11,561 nucleotides of DNA, taken from the IMG/VR virus record IMGVR_UViG_2850756110_000001; one strand, 5' to 3'. The DNA comes from a virus (taxonomy: Duplodnaviria > Heunggongvirae > Uroviricota > Caudoviricetes). Below, piece after piece: positions 1-6,820 of this stretch. The translations under genes and the position numbers were made by a program. The notes beneath the pieces were generated by a model that was not told the origin of the DNA, did not search any database, and saw nothing but the letters and a program-made list of their open reading frames with translations. The stretch's first letter is position 1, and each line of letters opens with the position of its first letter.

Positions 1-728
1 TCAAATAACCAGCTTAACCCATTCCTGACCTCGAGTATCGTTATAGCGATCGGTGGTTGCCTGGACTTTATGTCCTAGTAATGTTTTTGTATCGATACCC
101 TGTGCACGGTACAGCCGTTCTGATAGAGAGCGTTGTTCATGAAATGTTGGCGGAGTTTTTCCTGCTGGTGGAATTATCCCAGCCAGATCCCGTGCTTTGG
201 CAAAGTAGTCGCTCAGGTTGTCTTTACTCATCGGCTTCGGTTGTTTCTGGTGCCGACTATGGATTAGATATGGACTTAATATTCTGTCTCGGCACCCATC
301 AATAACTTCTTTTAACGTTATCCCAATGGCATCACAGCGTAGTGTAAGCGGTAACGCCAGACGCATTCCGGTTTTTCCCTGGGTGATATGCAAGTGTTCG
401 TTCCACACATCTGAAAAACGCATGTGGCAAATGTCATCACGGCGCTGACCAGTAACAATCGCAAGAAGCATTGCGTTACGGATAAAGTGTTTTTCAGGCG
501 TTGCATTGTAAATTTTTTGCCAGTCTTCCATGGTGAGCCTGGCTCTGGTTACTTTAGGGATCGGTTTACGGGTAGCCTCCGGAGGATTCCATCCAGGAGG
601 AACTTCCCCTGCATGCTGTGCTTCTTTATAAATATCAACCCATAATCCACGATTTACTCTCGCTGTGCTGACCATGTCTTTATCCAGCCACTCATCCAGT
701 ATTAATGCAAAGTCTCTTACTTCCAGTT
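1..728 (-). pseudogene. int: Phage tyrosine integrase, C-terminal catalytic part of a gene split by IS2
   Basis: Minus-strand frame ends with TGA at 3..1. Translation (...EVRDFALILDEW...TGQRRDD...QGKTG...TFHEQRSLSERLY...GHKVQATTDRYNDTRGQEW) carries the R / K / HxxR / Y recombinase signature and resembles the lambda Int C-terminus. The first ~13 residues of the track ORF (up to 765) are encoded by IS2, not by the gene. Confidence 0.85.
724..728. repeat. IS2 target-site duplication, left copy (CAGTT)
   Basis: CAGTT immediately outside the IS2 terminus at 729; identical pentamer at 2060-2064 outside the other terminus. Confidence 0.85.
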
Positions 729-739
729 TGGATTTGCCC

Positions 740-1645
740 CTATATTTCCAGACATCTGTTATCACTTAACCCATTACAAGCCCGCTGCCGCAGATATTCC
801 CGTGGCGAGCGATAACCCAGCGCACTATGCGGATGCCATTCGTTATAATGCTCGAACGCCTCTGCAAGGTTCTTTGCTGCCGTTAACCCGTCTGGTTTGG
901 GCATGATACTGATGTAGTCACGCTTTATCGTTTTCACGAAGCTCTCTGCTATTCCGTTACTCTCCGGACTCCGCACCGCCGTGTTCTTCGGTTCAAGTCC
1001 CAACATCCGGGCGAACTGGCGTGTTTCATTAGCCCGGTAGCATGAACCATTATCCGTCAGCCACTCCACTGGAGACGACGGAAGATCGTTGCCGAAGCGG
1101 CGTTCCACCGCACCCAGCATGACGTCCTGTACTGTTTCACTGTTGAAGCCGCCGGTAGTCACCGCCCAGTGCAGTGCCTCACGATCACAGCAGTCCAGCG
1201 CGAACGTGACACGCAGTCTCTCTCCGTTATCACAGCAGAACTCGAACCCGTCAGAGCACCATCGCTGATTGCTTTCTTTCACGGCCACTCTGCCTGTATG
1301 TGCCCGTTTCGATGGTGGTACAGCAGGTTTTCGCTCAAGCAACAGCGCATTCTGGCGCATGATCCGGTAAACACGTTTGGCATTGATCGCAGGCATACCA
1401 TCAAGTTCTGCCTGTCTGCGAAGCAGCGCCCATACCCGACGATAACCATACGTGGGCAGCTCTCCGATAACATGGTGTATACGGAGAAGCACATCCGTAT
1501 CATCAGTGTGACGACTGCGGCGGCCATCCATCCAGTCATCGGTTCGTCTGAGAATGACGTGCAACTGCGCACGCGACACCCGGAGACAACGGCTGACTAA
1601 GCTTACTCCCCATCCCCGGGCAATAAGGGCGCGTGCGCTATCCAC
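740..1645 (-). CDS. insD: IS2 transposase OrfB (InsD), DDE integrase-like catalytic domain
   Basis: 301-aa ORF ([20 protein letters not shown]...[14 protein letters not shown]...) recognised as IS2 InsD; overlaps orfA as expected for IS3-family frameshift expression. Confidence 0.9.
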
Positions 1646-1968
1646 TTTTTTGCCCGTCCATATTCAACGGCTTCTTTGAGGAGTTCATTTTCCATCGTTT
1701 TCTTGCCGAGCAGGCGCTGGAGTTCTTTAATCTGCTTCATGGCGGCAGCAAGTTCAGAGGCAGGAACAACCTGTTCTCCGGCGGCCACAGCAGTAAGACT
1801 TCCTTCCTGGTATTGCTTACGCCAGAGAAATAACTGGCTGGCTGCTACACCATGTTGCCGGGCAACGAGGGAGACCGTCATCCCCGGTTCAAAGCTCTGC
1901 TGAACAATTGCGATCTTTTCCTGTGTGGTACGCCGTCTGCGTTTCTCCGGCCCTAAGACATCAATCAT
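1603..1968 (-). CDS. insC: IS2 transposase OrfA (InsC), HTH DNA-binding protein
   Basis: 121-aa product [41 protein letters not shown]... starting at the ATG at 1968. The track ORF extends 15 codons further upstream from a non-ATG start. Confidence 0.9.
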
Positions 1969-2059
1969 CTGTACTCCAATGACTAGTCTAAAAACTAGTA
2001 TTAAGACTATCACTTATTTAAGTGATACTGGTTGTCTGGAGATTCAGGGGGCCAGTCTA

Positions 2060-2064
2060 CAGTT
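2060..2064. repeat. IS2 target-site duplication, right copy (CAGTT)
   Basis: Direct repeat of 724-728 flanking the IS2 insertion. Confidence 0.85.
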
Positions 2065-2455
2065 CTTTCAATGGGTGGTTTCCCAGACGGGAAACCAGGT
2101 ATGCAGCCATTCGAGTTTTTTCTTTGTGAGTTGTAGCTGCAATATCTCCATTTTTCAGTCGCGTGTCCTGTATTTTCAGATATCGATCAACCCATGCCTT
2201 TAATCTGATACCCCGACGTTTTGTTGCTGACGGACTTTCATCAATTTTGCGCATGAAATATTCAGCTTCTGCTGCAGCTATTCGCTGATTGGCTGTGGAA
2301 GCGATTTTTTCTGCCTTACCTTTGTCTGTTCCGAGTCCGTGAAATTTTCCAGTCACAGGATTTTTATACTGGTAGTAAACTCTGCCAGTTCTGCGATCAA
2401 ACTTTTCGTAAAGACCGGCTACGTCAGTGCTGTTTTTTCGTGGCCTCGGTGACAT
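2060..2455 (-). pseudogene. int: Phage tyrosine integrase, N-terminal part (arm-binding/core-binding region), interrupted by IS2
   Basis: Minus-strand ATG at 2455..2453; translation MSPRPRKNSTDVAGLYEKFDRRTGRVYYQYKNPVTGKFHGLGTDKGK...KEL has the lambdoid Int N-terminal pattern. After removing IS2 and one TSD copy the frame continues directly into 728..1 (...KEL|EVRDFAL...), giving ~372 aa. Confidence 0.85.
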
Positions 2456-2671
2456 GAGTTAAAATCTCCTTCAGTGCATCATCATCGCCAGTATGAATTT
2501 CCGGCGCAATTCCCGTTTCACCAGGCCCAACAAATACTGCTCGGCGATCTATCAGCCAACGCCCACGAATTTTTTGTGGTCTTGGAACGATGTATCCTAG
2601 TTTTCCGTATTTCACCAGGGTAGTGTTTGTTATTGGGAGACTGAACCGTTTTGGTTTCCACTCGTCGAGCG
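2424..2671 (-). pseudogene. xis: Excisionase (Xis-like), 5' end removed or replaced by IS1
   Basis: Native translation PLDEWKPKRFSLPITNTTLVKYGKLGYIVPRPQKIRGRWLIDRRAVFV... resembles lambda Xis (LTLQEWNARQRRPRSLETVRRWVRECRIFPPPVKDGREYLFHESAV). Overlaps int start by ~32 bp as in xis-int modules. No start codon in the native part; the track ORF N-terminus (58 aa) is encoded by IS1. Confidence 0.6.
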
Positions 2672-2726
2672 GGTAATGCTGCCAACTTACTGATTTAGTG
2701 TATGATGGTGATTTTAAGGTGCTTGC

Positions 2727-3002
2727 GTGGCTTCCATTTCCATCAGATGTCCTTCCTGCTCCGCTACTGAAGGCGTGGTGCGTAACGGCAAAAGCACTGC
2801 CGGACATCAGCGCTATCTCTGCTCTCATTGCCGTAAAACATGGCAACTACAGTTCACTTACACCGCCTCTCAGCCCGGTACGCACCAGAAAATCATTGAT
2901 ATGGCCATGAATGGCGTCGGATGTCGCGCCAGTGCACGCATTATGGGCGTTGGCCTCAACACGGTTTTACGTCACTTAAAAAACTCAGGCCGCAGTCGGT
3001 AA
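2727..3002 (+). CDS. insA: IS1 InsA
   Basis: 91-aa product [58 protein letters not shown]..., recognised as IS1 InsA. Confidence 0.9.
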
Positions 3003-3424
3003 CCTCGCGCATACAACCGGGCAGTGATGTGATTGTCTGCGCTGAAATGGACGAACAGTGGGGCTACGTCGGTGCTAAATCACGTCAGCGCTGGCTGTTT
3101 TACGCGTATGACAGGATACGGAGGACGGTTGTGGCGCACGTCTTCGGTGAACGCACTCTGGCCACACTGGAGCGTCTTCTGAGCCTGCTGTCGGCCTTTG
3201 AGGTCGTGGTATGGATGACGGATGGCTGGCCGCTGTATGAATCACGCCTGAAGGGAAAGCTGCACGTTATCAGCAAGCGTTACACTCAGCGCATTGAGCG
3301 ACATAATCTGAATCTGAGACAACATCTGGCAAGGCTGGGACGGAAGTCACTGTCGTTCTCAAAATCGGTGGAGCTGCATGACAAGGTCATCGGGCATTAT
3401 CTGAACATAAAACACTATCAGTAA
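2921..3424 (+). CDS. insB: IS1 InsB frame (expressed as InsAB' by -1 frameshift)
   Basis: 167-aa frame ...[36 protein letters not shown]...[13 protein letters not shown]..., recognised as IS1 InsB. Confidence 0.85.
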
Positions 3425-4049: not shown

Positions 4050-4053
4050 TTGC

Positions 4054-4091
4054 TAAAAAAAGCCGCCAGCGGCAGGAATGGAAGCTGGCGG
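4054..4091 (-). terminator. Intrinsic-terminator-like hairpin; strong on minus strand (stem + U7), weak on plus strand
   Basis: 8-bp GC-rich stem CCGCCAGC (4063-4070) / GCTGGCGG (4084-4091), 13-nt loop. On the minus strand the stem is followed by a run of 7 T (plus-strand A-run 4055-4061). It sits 5 bp after the stop of the 3551-4049 frame. Confidence 0.45.
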
Positions 4092-4139
4092 AGGTAATCC
4101 CAATGGAGAATGTAAAGAAAAGATGCTTTCGTACATTGG

Positions 4140-4170
4140 TTTTTTAAATGAAAACAATTCTCATTGTCAA
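4140..4170 (-). promoter_or_regulatory. Candidate sigma70 promoter on minus strand (perfect -35 TTGACA, -10 TTTAAA/TAAAAA)
   Basis: Minus strand reads TTGACA-atgagaattgttttca-TTTAAA. Would fire toward the 4054-4091 terminator about 80 nt away. Sequence only, no expression data. Confidence 0.25.
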
Positions 4171-4394
4171 CCATAACGGTAAGAAATTATGACATTTATT
4201 CATCAGGTGATGCTGTACTTCTGTACGGCGGTCTGTGCTGTATCTTCTTTCGGGTGGGTACAGGGCTGTGCGCGATTTCTGGTACAGGCAGATTGATAAA
4301 AGGGCCGCTGAGAAAATCAGCGCCAGTCAGTCAGCCGGAAGCAAACCCGAAGAACCCGTTACTCCTTAACAACCCCTTTCAGCGAGAAAATCCC

Positions 4395-4640
4395 ATGTCA
4401 GAAATCACATCCCTGGTCACTGCAGAGGCAGTGAAGGAAGTCCTGCGCTCTGAAGAAGTCCGGAGCGCACTGAAACAGAAACTTCGCCTGAATCTTGAGT
4501 CGCGTCTTGATGCAGAAGTGGATGCCATTCTGGATGAGCTGCTGGGCGTAGCAGTGGTTCCTGAGCCGGAAGGTATCGCGGGTGACGGGAGTGCTTCAGA
4601 TGGCGGTGAACCTACACCTGACAGCGACATGATGATGTAA
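4395..4640 (+). CDS. Hypothetical small acidic protein (81 aa), moron-like position upstream of the lysis cassette
   Basis: ATG at 4395 with weak GAGA SD; product [81 protein letters not shown] has a helical N-terminal half and an acidic, low-complexity tail. The track ORF 5' extension (4164-4394) has implausible composition and no RBS. Confidence 0.5.
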
Positions 4641-4652
4641 GCATGCGCAAGG

Positions 4653-4685
4653 GACCATCGGTGTGTGCCGGTGGTCTTTATATTG
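4653..4685 (+). terminator. Candidate intrinsic terminator between the acidic ORF and the holin gene
   Basis: GACCATCGG (4653-4661) pairs with CCGGTGGTC (4668-4676) (9 bp incl. one G-U), 6-nt loop, then TTTATATTGTTGTG. Confidence 0.4.
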
Positions 4686-4716
4686 TTGTGAGCTTCCGGA
4701 TTGCGGGAGACGGGGT

Positions 4717-4932
4717 ATGTACCAGATGGAAAAAATCACAACAGGTGTGTCATACACCACGTCAGCGGTGGGAACGGGCTACTGGTTCCTGCAGTTGCTG
4801 GACAGGGTTTCCCCGTCTCAGTGGGCGGCAATAGGCGTGCTGGGGAGTCTGTTGTTTGGGCTGCTGACATATCTGACTAACCTGTATTTCAAAATCAGAG
4901 AGGACCGTCGTAAGGCGGCGTGGGGAGAGTAA
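4717..4932 (+). CDS. Class II holin, phage 21 S-type pinholin with dual start (Met1/Met4)
   Basis: [71 protein letters not shown] closely resembles S21 as I remember it (...[24 protein letters not shown]...[18 protein letters not shown]...). Two TMDs; second ATG at 4726. Confidence 0.85.
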
Positions 4933-4936
4933 AGCG

Positions 4937-5281
4937 ATGAAGAAAAAATACGAACTGGTTGTTAAAGGGATAAATAATTACCCGAATAAGATTACTGTTA
5001 CTGTGGCACTGGAAATTGGTGGGTATCCGTCACTGTTGTTGCCAGATGTGGCGATTAGTCTTGACCGTACTGAAGATGCCACGCTGGAGTTTTACGAAGC
5101 TGAGGCGAAAAAGCAGGCGAAGCAGTTTTTCATGGATGTTGCTGCCGGGTTATGTGAAGGGGATGGTCCGTTGCCGGAAAAGCGCCCCGTAATTTTAGAG
5201 GCGCAGGATGTGTTGATAACCTACAGAGGAAAACTACCGGGAATAATTACTGGTTCTCTGAAGACTCCACCGCTGGCCTGA
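4937..5281 (+). CDS. Hypothetical protein between holin and endolysin (same position as YdfR/DUF1327-type prophage genes; family not verified)
   Basis: ATG at 4937 preceded by GGAGAG; 114 aa, soluble; starts 5 bp after the holin stop. Confidence 0.65.
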   Translation: MKKKYELVVKGINNYPNKITVTVALEIGGYPSLLLPDVAISLDRTEDATLEFYEAEAKKQAKQFFMDVAAGLCEGDGPLPEKRPVILEAQDVLITYRGKLPGIITGSLKTPPLA

Positions 5282-5331: not shown

Positions 5332-5865
5332 ATGAACACCAAAATCAAATACGGCCTGTCGGCTGCCATTCTGGCGCTGATTGCCGCAGGTGCGCCTGCG
5401 CCTGAAATCCTCGACCAGTTTCTGGATGAAAAGGAAGGTAACCACACCACGGCATACCGTGATGGCGCGGGTATCTGGACCATCTGCCGCGGTGCCATCC
5501 TGGTGGATAGTAAACCTGTCGTCCCGGGCATGAAGTTGTCGAAGGAAAAATGCGACCAGGTCAACGCCATTGAGCGTGATAAGGCGCTGGCATGGGTGGA
5601 GCGCAATATTAAAGTGCCGCTGACCGAACCCCAGAAAGCGGGTATCGCGTCATTTTGTCCCTATAACATTGGCCCCGGTAAGTGTTTCCCGTCGACGTTT
5701 TACAGACGGATTAATGCTGGTGACCGCAGGGGAGCATGCGAAGCGATTCGCTGGTGGATTAAGGACGGTGGCAGAGACTGCCGTATCCGCTCAAATAATT
5801 GCTACGGTCAGGTATCCCGGCGAGACCAGGAAAGTGCGCTGGCGTGCTGGGACATCGACAGATAA
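5332..5865 (+). CDS. SAR endolysin (T4-lysozyme-like muramidase, glycoside hydrolase family 24)
   Basis: N-terminal weakly hydrophobic Gly/Ala-rich segment (YGLSAAILALIAAGAPAP) typical of a signal-anchor-release domain. Catalytic triad E35...D44...T50 (KEGNHTTAYRDGAGIWT) with the same spacing as the triad I recall for P21 R. Downstream partner of a pinholin. Confidence 0.9.
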   Translation: MNTKIKYGLSAAILALIAAGAPAPEILDQFLDEKEGNHTTAYRDGAGIWTICRGAILVDSKPVVPGMKLSKEKCDQVNAIERDKALAWVERNIKVPLTEPQKAGIASFCPYNIGPGKCFPSTFYRRINAGDRRGACEAIRWWIKDGGRDCRIRSNNCYGQVSRRDQESALACWDIDR

Positions 5866-6218: not shown

Positions 6219-6350
6219 ATGTCAGACAAACTCATAACGCTGGCGAAGATCCTCTGTGTAATTGTCGGCATTTCATTTTCACTAATGCTGGTTGCTCTTT
6301 TTCTTTCCATGGCCTGGATGATGTTGTCTTCGTCGGGGCTGCTGGGGTGA
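6219..6350 (+). CDS. Hypothetical small single-pass membrane protein (43 aa), translationally coupled to Rz
   Basis: Strong SD AAGGGAGG 7 nt upstream of ATG 6219; product [43 protein letters not shown]. Its TGA (6348-6350) overlaps the GTG start of Rz (GTGA). Confidence 0.55.
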
Positions 6351-6820
6351 ACATAAACCGAATGCTTTCCGCGTTTACCGTTATTCTGCTGGTGGTCTGT
6401 GGTGCGCTGTGGCTGGCAACAGACCATTACCGTGATAACGCCATCACCTACAAAGCGCAGCGCGATAAAAAAGCCAGAGAGCTGGAGCTGGCAAACGCAA
6501 CCATTACTGACATGCAGCAGCGCCAGCGTGATGTTGCTGCGCTTGATGCCAGATACTCAAGGGAATTAGCCGATGCGAGAGCTGAAAATGAAACTCTGCG
6601 TGCTGATGTTGCCGCTGGTCGTAAGCGCCTGCGGATCAACGCCACCTGCTCCGGTACCGTGCGTGAAGCCACCGGCACCTCCGGAATGGATAATGCAACC
6701 GGCCCCCGACTGGCAGACACCGCTGAACGGGATTATTTCACCCTCAGAGAGCGGTTGATGACAATGCAGAAGCAACTGGAAGGGGCGCAGGAATATATCC
6801 GCACTCAGTGTATTAACTAG
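6347..6820 (+). CDS. Rz: Rz inner-membrane spanin (i-spanin)
   Basis: ...[72 protein letters not shown]...[29 protein letters not shown] is nearly collinear with lambda Rz. N-terminal TM helix. Start is GTG 6347 or ATG 6362. Confidence 0.9.
6573..6758 (+). CDS. Rz1: Rz1 outer-membrane lipoprotein spanin (o-spanin), embedded in the +1 frame of Rz
   Basis: [61 protein letters not shown] matches lambda Rz1 (...LCVMMLPLVVVGC...[32 protein letters not shown]). Lipobox VSAC, proline-rich mature part. Start may be the internal MKL. Confidence 0.85.

Follow-up and report, generated by a model that had tools for sequence, protein, structure and literature searches.

The window, i.e., the whole stretch of 11,561 nucleotides that was analysed, carries on its plus strand, in this order, an InsB open reading frame (ORF, 2921-3424), the 3' remnant of the sialate O-acetylesterase gene nanS-p, a frameshifted DUF1378 gene, a DUF826 gene, a holin gene, and the genes for DUF1327, lysozyme and Rz (Table 1). 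The nanS-p remnant matches the full-length SASA esterase genes of E. coli ML35 and O104:H4 at their 3' end with 100% identity, and its upstream cut was made by IS1, to which the InsB ORF belongs. The holin gene is the first gene of the lysis cassette. On the left side of the window, an integrase gene is interrupted by an IS3-family element, and IS66 and IS110-family elements lie on the right side. Neither a Q gene nor a late promoter was found within the window, and none of the complete E. coli genomes searched covers more than 42% of it, which together identify the window as a decayed, IS-ridden prophage remnant from which Q and the late promoter have been lost. The named proteins nearest to those of the window are from Shigella. 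Because this remnant is without Q and the late promoter, the cassette in it is probably silent and decaying.

Table 1. Features of the esterase-holin stretch and its surroundings (positions of the window).
Feature	Position	Strand	Basis
Sialate O-acetylesterase gene nanS-p, 3' remnant, 174 codons	3525-4049	+	Pfam DUF6645, E 2.4e-29
Candidate convergent small RNA, PasA/PasC/EcOnc32 positional type	4052-4140	-	Fold, layout, weak matches
Candidate small-RNA promoter	4141-4170	-	-35 TTGACA (4170 to 4165), 17 nt to TTAAAA or 18 nt to TAAAAA
Originally proposed promoter, TTGTCA, 18 nt, TATGAC	4164-4193	+	Hexamers read directly
DUF1378 pseudogene	4189-4369	+	Pfam PF07125 in two frames (28.3 and 81.1 bits)
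DUF826 gene, 81 aa, ATG start	4395-4640	+	Pfam PF05696, 144 bits, E 1.6e-42
Terminator-like hairpin and U-rich run	4650-4689	+	Core 4653-4661 paired with 4668-4676; scan, fold
Second hairpin CTTCCG-GATTG-CGGGAG, near-invariant, overlapping the holin Shine-Dalgarno sequence	4693-4709	+	Fold
Holin gene, phage-21-type class II (pinholin), 71 aa, dual start Met1/Met4	4717-4932	+	Pfam PF04971, E 9e-33
DUF1327 gene	4937-5281	+	Pfam/neighbouring genes
Lysozyme gene	5332-5865	+	Pfam/neighbouring genes
Rz gene	6347-6820	+	Pfam/neighbouring genes

The DUF826 gene is the 81-aa ORF that the original prediction, made from the letters alone, had placed at the centre of a moron-like unit at 4164-4685, i.e., a plus-strand promoter, a gene for a small acidic protein and a terminator. 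The ORF is indeed ATG-initiated, and the match of its product to the DUF826 family far exceeds the curated cut-off of 25 bits and covers profile positions 1-75 of 75. The whole protein has a pI of 4.1, and the acidic tail rich in Asp, Glu, Gly and Pro is present as described, with seven D/E, no K/R and nine G/P in residues 52-81. In an AlphaFold2 model, residues 2-17 and 20-49 form helices and the tail is disordered, and both helices are conserved, with a tail after them that is acidic, Pro-rich and variable and has MMM as its last residues. The N-terminus, which had been described as an amphipathic helix, is thus helical in the model, but its amphipathic character was not significant in a simple hydrophobic-moment test.

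Among 34 unique related sequences, the pooled pN/pS of DUF826 amounts to 0.12 over residues 1-51 and rises to 0.54 in the tail. The variable columns are distributed over the three codon positions as 21, 21 and 47, all differences in tail length are in frame, and the gene is intact in 32 sequences, the two exceptions being one true frameshift and one alignment artefact. The DUF826 ORF is a real gene under purifying selection, and in this respect the conservation of the ORF, left as a question when it was first described, is established. An 83-aa antisense ORF at 4379-4630 was set aside because selection tracks the DUF826 frame. A 158-aa ORF starting from TTG 4164 was rejected as a gene, being the DUF826 frame continuing upstream.

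When 1.84 billion representative proteins were searched exhaustively with a profile, only 55 DUF826 clusters came up, all of them from Enterobacteriaceae (E. coli and Shigella, Citrobacter, Salmonella). Distant members keep the two helices, an acidic Pro-rich tail, and a hydrophobic tip that reads MMM, MML, TML or ATLL. A scan of species-representative genomes for DUF826 patterns found none. PHROGs gives no function for the family, and the Pfam family is likewise without known function. The structure prediction that had been suggested as a check of the 81-aa product yielded a model, but a fold search of the PDB with this model returned no meaningful match (best E 6.2), and neither fold nor sequence likeness to a known DNA mimic was found in PDB, Pfam or PHROGs.

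The unit had been described as a single gene; it is actually the pair DUF1378-DUF826, in which DUF1378 was overlooked. The DUF1378 ATG lies at 4189, inside the proposed -10 hexamer. Alignment with the intact copies of ML35, O104:H4 and VT2-Sakai places a 2-bp (TG) deletion within GGTCTGTGCTG (4230-4240), which shifts the DUF1378 frame: codons 1-18 are in the frame of ORF 4189-4296, and the remainder is in the frame of ORF 4235-4369. With no single intact frame across the match, the window copy is a pseudogene of a PF07125 family member. This deletion is not a sequencing error, since the same allele is found in six NCBI assemblies, which carry window positions 4050-4720 exactly, and GCA_002949655.1 is an example of an assembly with the allele; a scan of species-representative genomes for the frameshift allele found none. 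The intact product has 59-64 aa, one predicted membrane helix and a basic tail. DUF1378 is intact in 29 of the 31 related loci that cover the gene (from the set of 34 unique sequences), with a pooled pN/pS of 0.22 and variable columns by codon position of 13, 9 and 27, and it is a real gene under selection in the relatives.

More than 200 Stx phages have a match to the region 4050-4720, with an identity of about 87%. Of 5426 complete E. coli genomes, 1027 carry the region, the median being three copies. In ML35, O104:H4 and VT2-Sakai, the gene order is Q, (stx), esterase, DUF1378, DUF826, S, R; at the DNA level, the window is 99.3% identical to E. coli ML35 and 87% identical to VT2-Sakai. The linkage to the esterase extends to distant relatives. 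All 34 loci with less than 60% protein identity for which upstream sequence was available carry SASA esterase, DUF1378 and DUF826 in this order, 32 of them retrieved with an E. coli P0116 query and two with a Citrobacter query. The P0116-query loci have Com/Mom or other genes and no holin downstream, and a holin follows in the two Citrobacter-query loci. In Salmonella phages, a lone DUF826-like gene is found between Rz and the small terminase. All of these DUF826 contexts are on the late-gene strand. The GC content of the cassette (0.47-0.55 vs. 0.48-0.56 for the lysis genes) does not set its composition apart.

The neighbouring esterase was reported to be induced by 1-2.4 log with mitomycin C, i.e., it is a late gene (PMC10462455), and the phi24B esterase was reported to be a capsid-decoration protein (10.64898/2026.04.10.717836). 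The cassette travels with this upstream esterase and is not a self-contained promoter-gene-terminator unit. The presence of DUF1378/DUF826 between the esterase and the lysis genes was merely noted in the literature, and a search on DUF826 found only that paper, which notes the domains (PMC10462455). A search by locus tags and DUF1378 found nothing relevant, and the phi24B lysogen-expression paper does not cover the two genes.

The segment is also an optional, mosaic module. In a set of 80 viral contigs with a holin of 93-100% DNA identity, both small genes are present in about 44 and absent from about 36, and the latter share with the window only the last ~48 nt ahead of the holin ATG. In E. 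coli E2348/69, prophage PP2 has an esterase gene and a related holin gene that are separated by quite different DNA, and prophage PP5 has an IS after the esterase region and no holin within the 4.5-kb locus examined. A further case is prophage Sp3 of E. coli O157 Sakai, which is without almost exactly the equivalent of window positions 4210-4656. Here, the equivalent of 4160-4209 (from TTGTCAA to the seventh DUF1378 codon) is joined directly to the holin-leader hairpin, with the junction at a shared CATCAG. Relatives that lack exactly 4160-4690 had been suggested as a check of the moron reading. Sp3 provides a near-exact loss, but one that takes the coding sequence and leaves both the supposed promoter and the supposed terminator in place.

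The hairpin with a U-rich tail shortly before the holin gene was correctly noticed in the original prediction. It is formed by 4650-4679 with a stem of 13 pairs, has at least five T in eight, and is separated by about 37 nt from the holin ATG at 4717. No other terminator-like site ranked higher in our scan, in which 10 sites were found vs. 1.4 expected. However, its assignment as the terminator of the small-gene unit itself is not clearly supported. A stable stem (-14 to -24 kcal/mol) and a U-rich run after it are present in all 30 unique holin leaders, whether or not these have the cassette. When 17 of the leaders were aligned, the 9-bp helix was paired in 94% of cells, with five of the nine pairs changing on both sides, and sliding the partners by 1-3 columns lowers the pairing of the whole two-helix structure to 40-59%. 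Compensating changes are seen between the cassette-less hairpin AGCCATCAG...CTGGTGGCT and that of the window, GACCATCGG...CCGGTGGTC, and the hairpin is kept in Sp3 despite the deletion of the cassette. Its presence, with compensatory changes, in cassette-less loci indicates that the hairpin at 4650-4689 belongs to the holin leader.

Most variants of this hairpin have the classical terminator form: a stem of -15 to -24 kcal/mol and, within the 10 nt that follow it, six to eight U. At the corresponding position, PP2 of E2348/69 has a GC hairpin with T6 that is unrelated. However, the U-run is interrupted in the window (UCUUUAUAUUGUUG) and weak in one hairpin class, so that termination at 4650-4689 may be partial, and a role in stability or translation is possible. 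In the Com/Mom context, which is without a holin, an unrelated hairpin directly follows DUF826, suggesting that hairpins mark module ends generally; a description of the window hairpin as also being the terminator at the end of the DUF826 module is thus defensible. Closer to the holin, five of the six pairs of the second hairpin never vary, and 99% of its cells are paired; in its position this hairpin is like the lambda sdi element. The most likely role of the hairpin at 4650-4689 would be that of an intrinsic terminator shielding the lysis genes from transcription that is not antiterminated.

At the other end of the segment, the hexamers TTGTCA (4164-4169) and TATGAC (4188-4193), 18 nt apart, are present as described, but their reading as a plus-strand promoter fared poorly. 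The candidate fails the scan criteria, the second hexamer being without T at position 6, and promoter-like sites occur in the region at chance level (two found vs. 2.2 expected). It overlaps the minus-strand -35 as well as the ribosome-binding region and start codon of DUF1378. Among 21 unique sequences upstream of DUF1378, the -35 position reads TTGTCA in 10, ATGTCA in five, TAGTCA in three and TCGTCA in one, and the -10 position reads TATGAC in 14, AATGAC in three, CATGAC in two and TATGAT in two. The hexamers are thus not conserved as a promoter; the constant part of the -10 is ATGA only, i.e., the DUF1378 start codon and part of the next codon.

The conserved core across the relatives is TGTCAA, which is the reverse complement of a perfect minus-strand TTGACA, and the two readings, plus-strand -35 hexamer and minus-strand TTGACA, overlap by five bases. 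Among the 19 unique relatives with the motif, TTGACA is perfect on the minus strand in 15, and the remaining four match five of the six positions; the plus-strand -35 is down to four of six in nine of these relatives, whereas the minus-strand reading stays at five of six or better. The arrangement TTGACA, 17-18 nt, TA(A/G)AAA on the minus strand recurs in three unrelated spacer types, and the TTGACA of the window aligns base for base, at 4170-4165, with the one just upstream of EcOnc32 (Sakai Sp3), and it also aligns with those upstream of PasA and PasC. The minus-strand -10 (TTAAAA or TAAAAA) is poor and fails the scan criteria as well. The proposed plus-strand promoter is better read, from these patterns of conservation, as the putative mirror image of a minus-strand small-RNA promoter.

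We note that the gap from GTCAA to the DUF1378 ATG (TATGAC) is 18 nt in most relatives, distant ones included. This fixed gap, together with the better -10 TATGAT in two relatives, would also fit a weak promoter on the plus strand. There may thus be a weak plus-strand promoter at 4164-4193.

The transcript that would start from this minus-strand promoter is predicted to form a hairpin at its 5' end (4109-4137) and a terminator stem in which 4063-4070 pairs with 4084-4091; U7 (4061 to 4055) comes after the stem. The terminator consists of CCGCCAGC, 13 nt, GCTGGCGG and U7 and adjoins the esterase stop codon. In position, strand, -35 and terminator layout, the candidate agrees with PasC, PasA, EcOnc52 and EcOnc32. 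PasC and PasA of EPEC are northern-validated, Hfq-dependent small RNAs (PMC8550237, Table S6), and so are EcOnc32 (Sakai Sp3) and EcOnc52 (Sakai Sp4) (PMC4104026). Across the whole window, all Rfam families stayed below their gathering scores; Rfam Esr41 gives a weak full-length match to the candidate, with 20.7 bits where the gathering score is 102. With a covariance model made from window-type sequences, the matches to EcOnc32 (15.7 bits, E 0.13) and PasC (14.3 bits, E 0.3) are weak too, and they fall exactly at the mapped EcOnc32 and PasC positions.

The closest known RNAs are PasA/PasC (PMC8550237, 10.64898/2026.05.13.724894), EcOnc32/EcOnc52 (PMC4104026) and Esr41 (Rfam RF02676). As in this type, the element of the window is on the minus strand in the gap that separates the esterase stop codon from the following late gene, with TTGACA as the -35, an A-rich -10, an RNA length of ~80-110 nt, a GCCAGC/GCTGGC terminator stem, and a U-run adjoining the esterase stop. 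The window RNA differs in that its body has diverged, with scores of 14-21 bits, far below the Rfam threshold. The minus-strand element at 4052-4140 is a probable but putative member of the PasA/PasC/EcOnc32 positional small-RNA family, the similarity of the RNA body being weak. AsxR, one of the AsxR/AgvB anti-sRNAs, was rejected for this region, as it is located between stx2B and the esterase.

Taken together, the observation behind the original prediction was largely accurate, and its interpretation as a moron is partly supported: the segment is an optional module, with about 36 of the 80 loci being without both genes, but it has no supported promoter of its own, and its supposed terminator is better assigned to the holin leader. 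We consider it likely, with good though not full confidence, that 4164-4685 comprises the last part of an 'esterase module', which belongs to the late operon of a Shiga-toxin-type lambdoid prophage, together with the start of the holin leader, and is not a self-contained moron. The order on the late strand would be the DUF1378 translation start, the DUF826 gene, and then the hairpin and U-rich run ~37 nt before the holin gene. In an intact phage, DUF1378 and DUF826 would be without a promoter of their own and would be read in the Q-antiterminated late transcript along with the NanS-p esterase and the lysis genes. In lambda, antitermination by Q passes downstream terminators, and our assignment of the hairpin is modelled on that case: in the lysogen, the hairpin would terminate ordinary transcription ahead of the lethal lysis genes, and Q-modified polymerase would read through it. 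The minus-strand TTGACA would most likely drive the convergent small RNA from ~4140 to 4052, ending at the terminator next to the esterase stop.

What the two proteins do can be suggested with low confidence only: DUF1378 and DUF826 may serve the late phase in an accessory way, connected with the esterase or with the timing of lysis, rather than act in lysogenic conversion. A more specific version, in which DUF1378 and DUF826 act as a late-phase pair with NanS-p or the pinholin (e.g., in lysis timing or in the processing or placement of the capsid-decorating esterase) and, separately, the hairpin acts as a 'safety' terminator, is speculative, and we would rate it as rather unlikely. As a side observation on the two products, DUF1378 has a membrane anchor and a basic tail, and DUF826 is an acidic protein of two helices whose disordered tail has the conserved hydrophobic tip (MMM, MML, TML).

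The autonomous moron of the original prediction would require that a sigma-70 promoter at 4164-4193 expresses the acidic protein in the lysogen, that 4653-4685 is the terminator of this unit, and that the protein provides a conversion or anti-defence benefit, e.g., as a DNA mimic. The presence or absence of the cassette among phages with near-identical holins and its almost exact loss in Sp3 speak for such a unit, as do the GTCAA at a fixed 18 nt from TATGAC in most relatives, the hairpin after DUF826 in two unrelated downstream contexts, and a DUF826 protein that is small, acidic and under selection. However, the proposed -10 holds the start codon of the conserved DUF1378, so a transcript from this promoter would skip DUF1378. 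The promoter fails the scan where comparable sites are at chance level, its -35 decays in relatives that keep the minus-strand TTGACA, and in Sp3 both 4160-4209 and the hairpin remain after the coding sequence has been deleted. Moreover, the pair is linked to the esterase, which is a late structural gene, the GC content of the cassette is no different from that of the lysis genes, and no DNA-mimic fold was matched. These points leave the autonomous moron improbable. About equally doubtful is a hairpin at 4650-4689 that acts mainly in the processing, stability or translation of the holin mRNA and would set holin dosage or start-codon choice together with the hairpin at 4693-4709. The hairpin is conserved with the holin and not with the upstream genes, always at a fixed short distance from the near-invariant Shine-Dalgarno hairpin, and the interrupted U-run of the window and the weak one of one hairpin class would fit as well. 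Against this stand the classical terminator form of most variants (six to eight U, -15 to -24 kcal/mol) and the replacement in PP2 of E2348/69 by an unrelated GC hairpin with T6. We regard it as very improbable that the segment acts mainly as RNA and that the 81-codon ORF is incidental, e.g., with a small RNA cut from the 3' end of the DUF826 message. Hfq-bound small RNAs are abundant in prophage late regions (PMC4104026), and the DUF826 message does end in a stable hairpin and U-run. However, selection acts on codons, with the excess of variable columns at third positions (21, 21, 47) and in-frame indels, protein-level homologues exist in Citrobacter and Salmonella, and no Rfam family reaches its gathering score.

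Compared with known systems, the closest counterpart of the window cassette is the pair between nanS-p and S in Stx phages (VT2-Sakai orf43 region, Min27 ORF47/48, 933W-type; WP_000142783.1, WP_001290235.1), which has the same genes, order and flanks. The window differs from it in that DUF1378 is frameshifted, the esterase is cut by IS1, and Q and the late promoter are lost. Morons of lambdoid phages, as the account of Juhala et al. 2000 given in PMC4104026 describes them, are extra DNA with their own promoter and terminator that is expressed from the prophage. The window cassette resembles them in being optional between near-identical neighbours, in lying in the moron-tolerant stretch past the late promoter, and in ending at a hairpin. 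Unlike morons, it has no supported promoter of its own, shares its hairpin with cassette-less loci, is co-inherited with a late structural gene, and has an ordinary composition relative to the lysis genes.

The late operons of lambda and phage 21 offer a further likeness: loci of the window type have a terminator-like hairpin and a Shine-Dalgarno hairpin before a dual-start class II holin gene in a Q-controlled operon, and in lambda the sdi stem-loop sits at the dual start of the S gene. The N-terminal extension of the window holin is MYQ, which has no positive charge, whereas that of the phage 21 holin is MKS.

The DUF1378-DUF826 cassette is already annotated and consists of known families, and in this sense the finding is an ordinary one; the genes are annotated in hundreds of Stx phages and in about one-fifth of complete E. 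coli genomes, and the decaying copy in the window matters little. The pair itself is widespread in EHEC and Shigella prophages, under selection and linked to the esterase. If the hairpin is indeed a 'safety' terminator, it would let phages carry expressed cargo (stx, esterase, small RNAs) right before the lethal lysis genes. The stretch between esterase and holin, with its candidate small-RNA gene and its covarying terminator-like hairpin, bears on how lysis may be kept silent in Stx prophages during cargo expression.

The DUF1378 gene of the window is frameshifted by a 2-bp deletion inside a short TG repeat (4230-4240). Six NCBI assemblies carry exactly the same allele, so this deletion has become fixed in a lineage and does not stem from a sequencing mistake. 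In prophage Sp3 of E. coli O157 Sakai (L175, 2395-2530), codons 1-7 of DUF1378 run straight into the hairpin of the holin leader, and a shared CATCAG marks the join. The junction looks like a microhomology deletion that removed the entire DUF1378-DUF826 cassette, suggesting loss as the origin of at least some cassette-less leaders.

A diverged trio of esterase, DUF1378 and DUF826 is found at L087 (2786-5068) and at 31 similar loci, in which no holin follows the trio and the DNA-modification genes Com and Mom lie about 1 kb downstream. A strong, unrelated hairpin stands immediately 3′ of DUF826 there (L087 3252-3279). At L123 (3001-3240) and about 45 Salmonella-type loci, a lone DUF826-like gene lies between Rz and the small terminase gene, with neither DUF1378 nor the esterase; its product has an N-terminal extension and lacks the hydrophobic-tipped tail.

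Near the holin start, a near-invariant hairpin (4693-4709, in the region 4693-4735) overlaps the Shine-Dalgarno sequence. In phage 21, the longer holin product is the antiholin. In the window, the dual-start extension is MYQ and contains no positively charged residue; the longer product may therefore lack the antiholin role that its counterpart has in phage 21. The DUF1327 gene is found in only some related loci and is thus another optional insert of the lysis cassette. The prophage is also riddled with insertion sequences (1-3424 and 7458-11185), and the window contains neither Q nor the late promoter.

Features of the window outside the DUF1378-DUF826 cassette
Feature	Position	Strand	Remark
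IS3-family element	740-2013		splits integrase gene
IS1	within 1-3424		truncates esterase
Candidate convergent small RNA	4052-4170	minus	-35, 5′ hairpin, terminator
DUF1327 gene (114 aa)	4937-5281		between holin and lysozyme
IS66	7458-9676		downstream of Rz
IS110-family transposase	10010-11185		downstream of Rz

The candidate small RNA has TTGACA (4170 to 4165) as its -35 element, and its terminator directly adjoins the esterase stop codon. Its layout matches that of the published PasA, PasC, EcOnc52 and EcOnc32, although the sequence similarity to them is weak.

In every case, the variable acidic tail of DUF826 is capped at its C-terminus by a short hydrophobic tip (window 4620-4637; also the DUF826 proteins P0111, P0114, P0117 and the E. 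coli query P0116), which reads MMM, MML, TML, ATLL or AMM and is kept even in Citrobacter homologues. Such a tail resembles a protein-docking tail.
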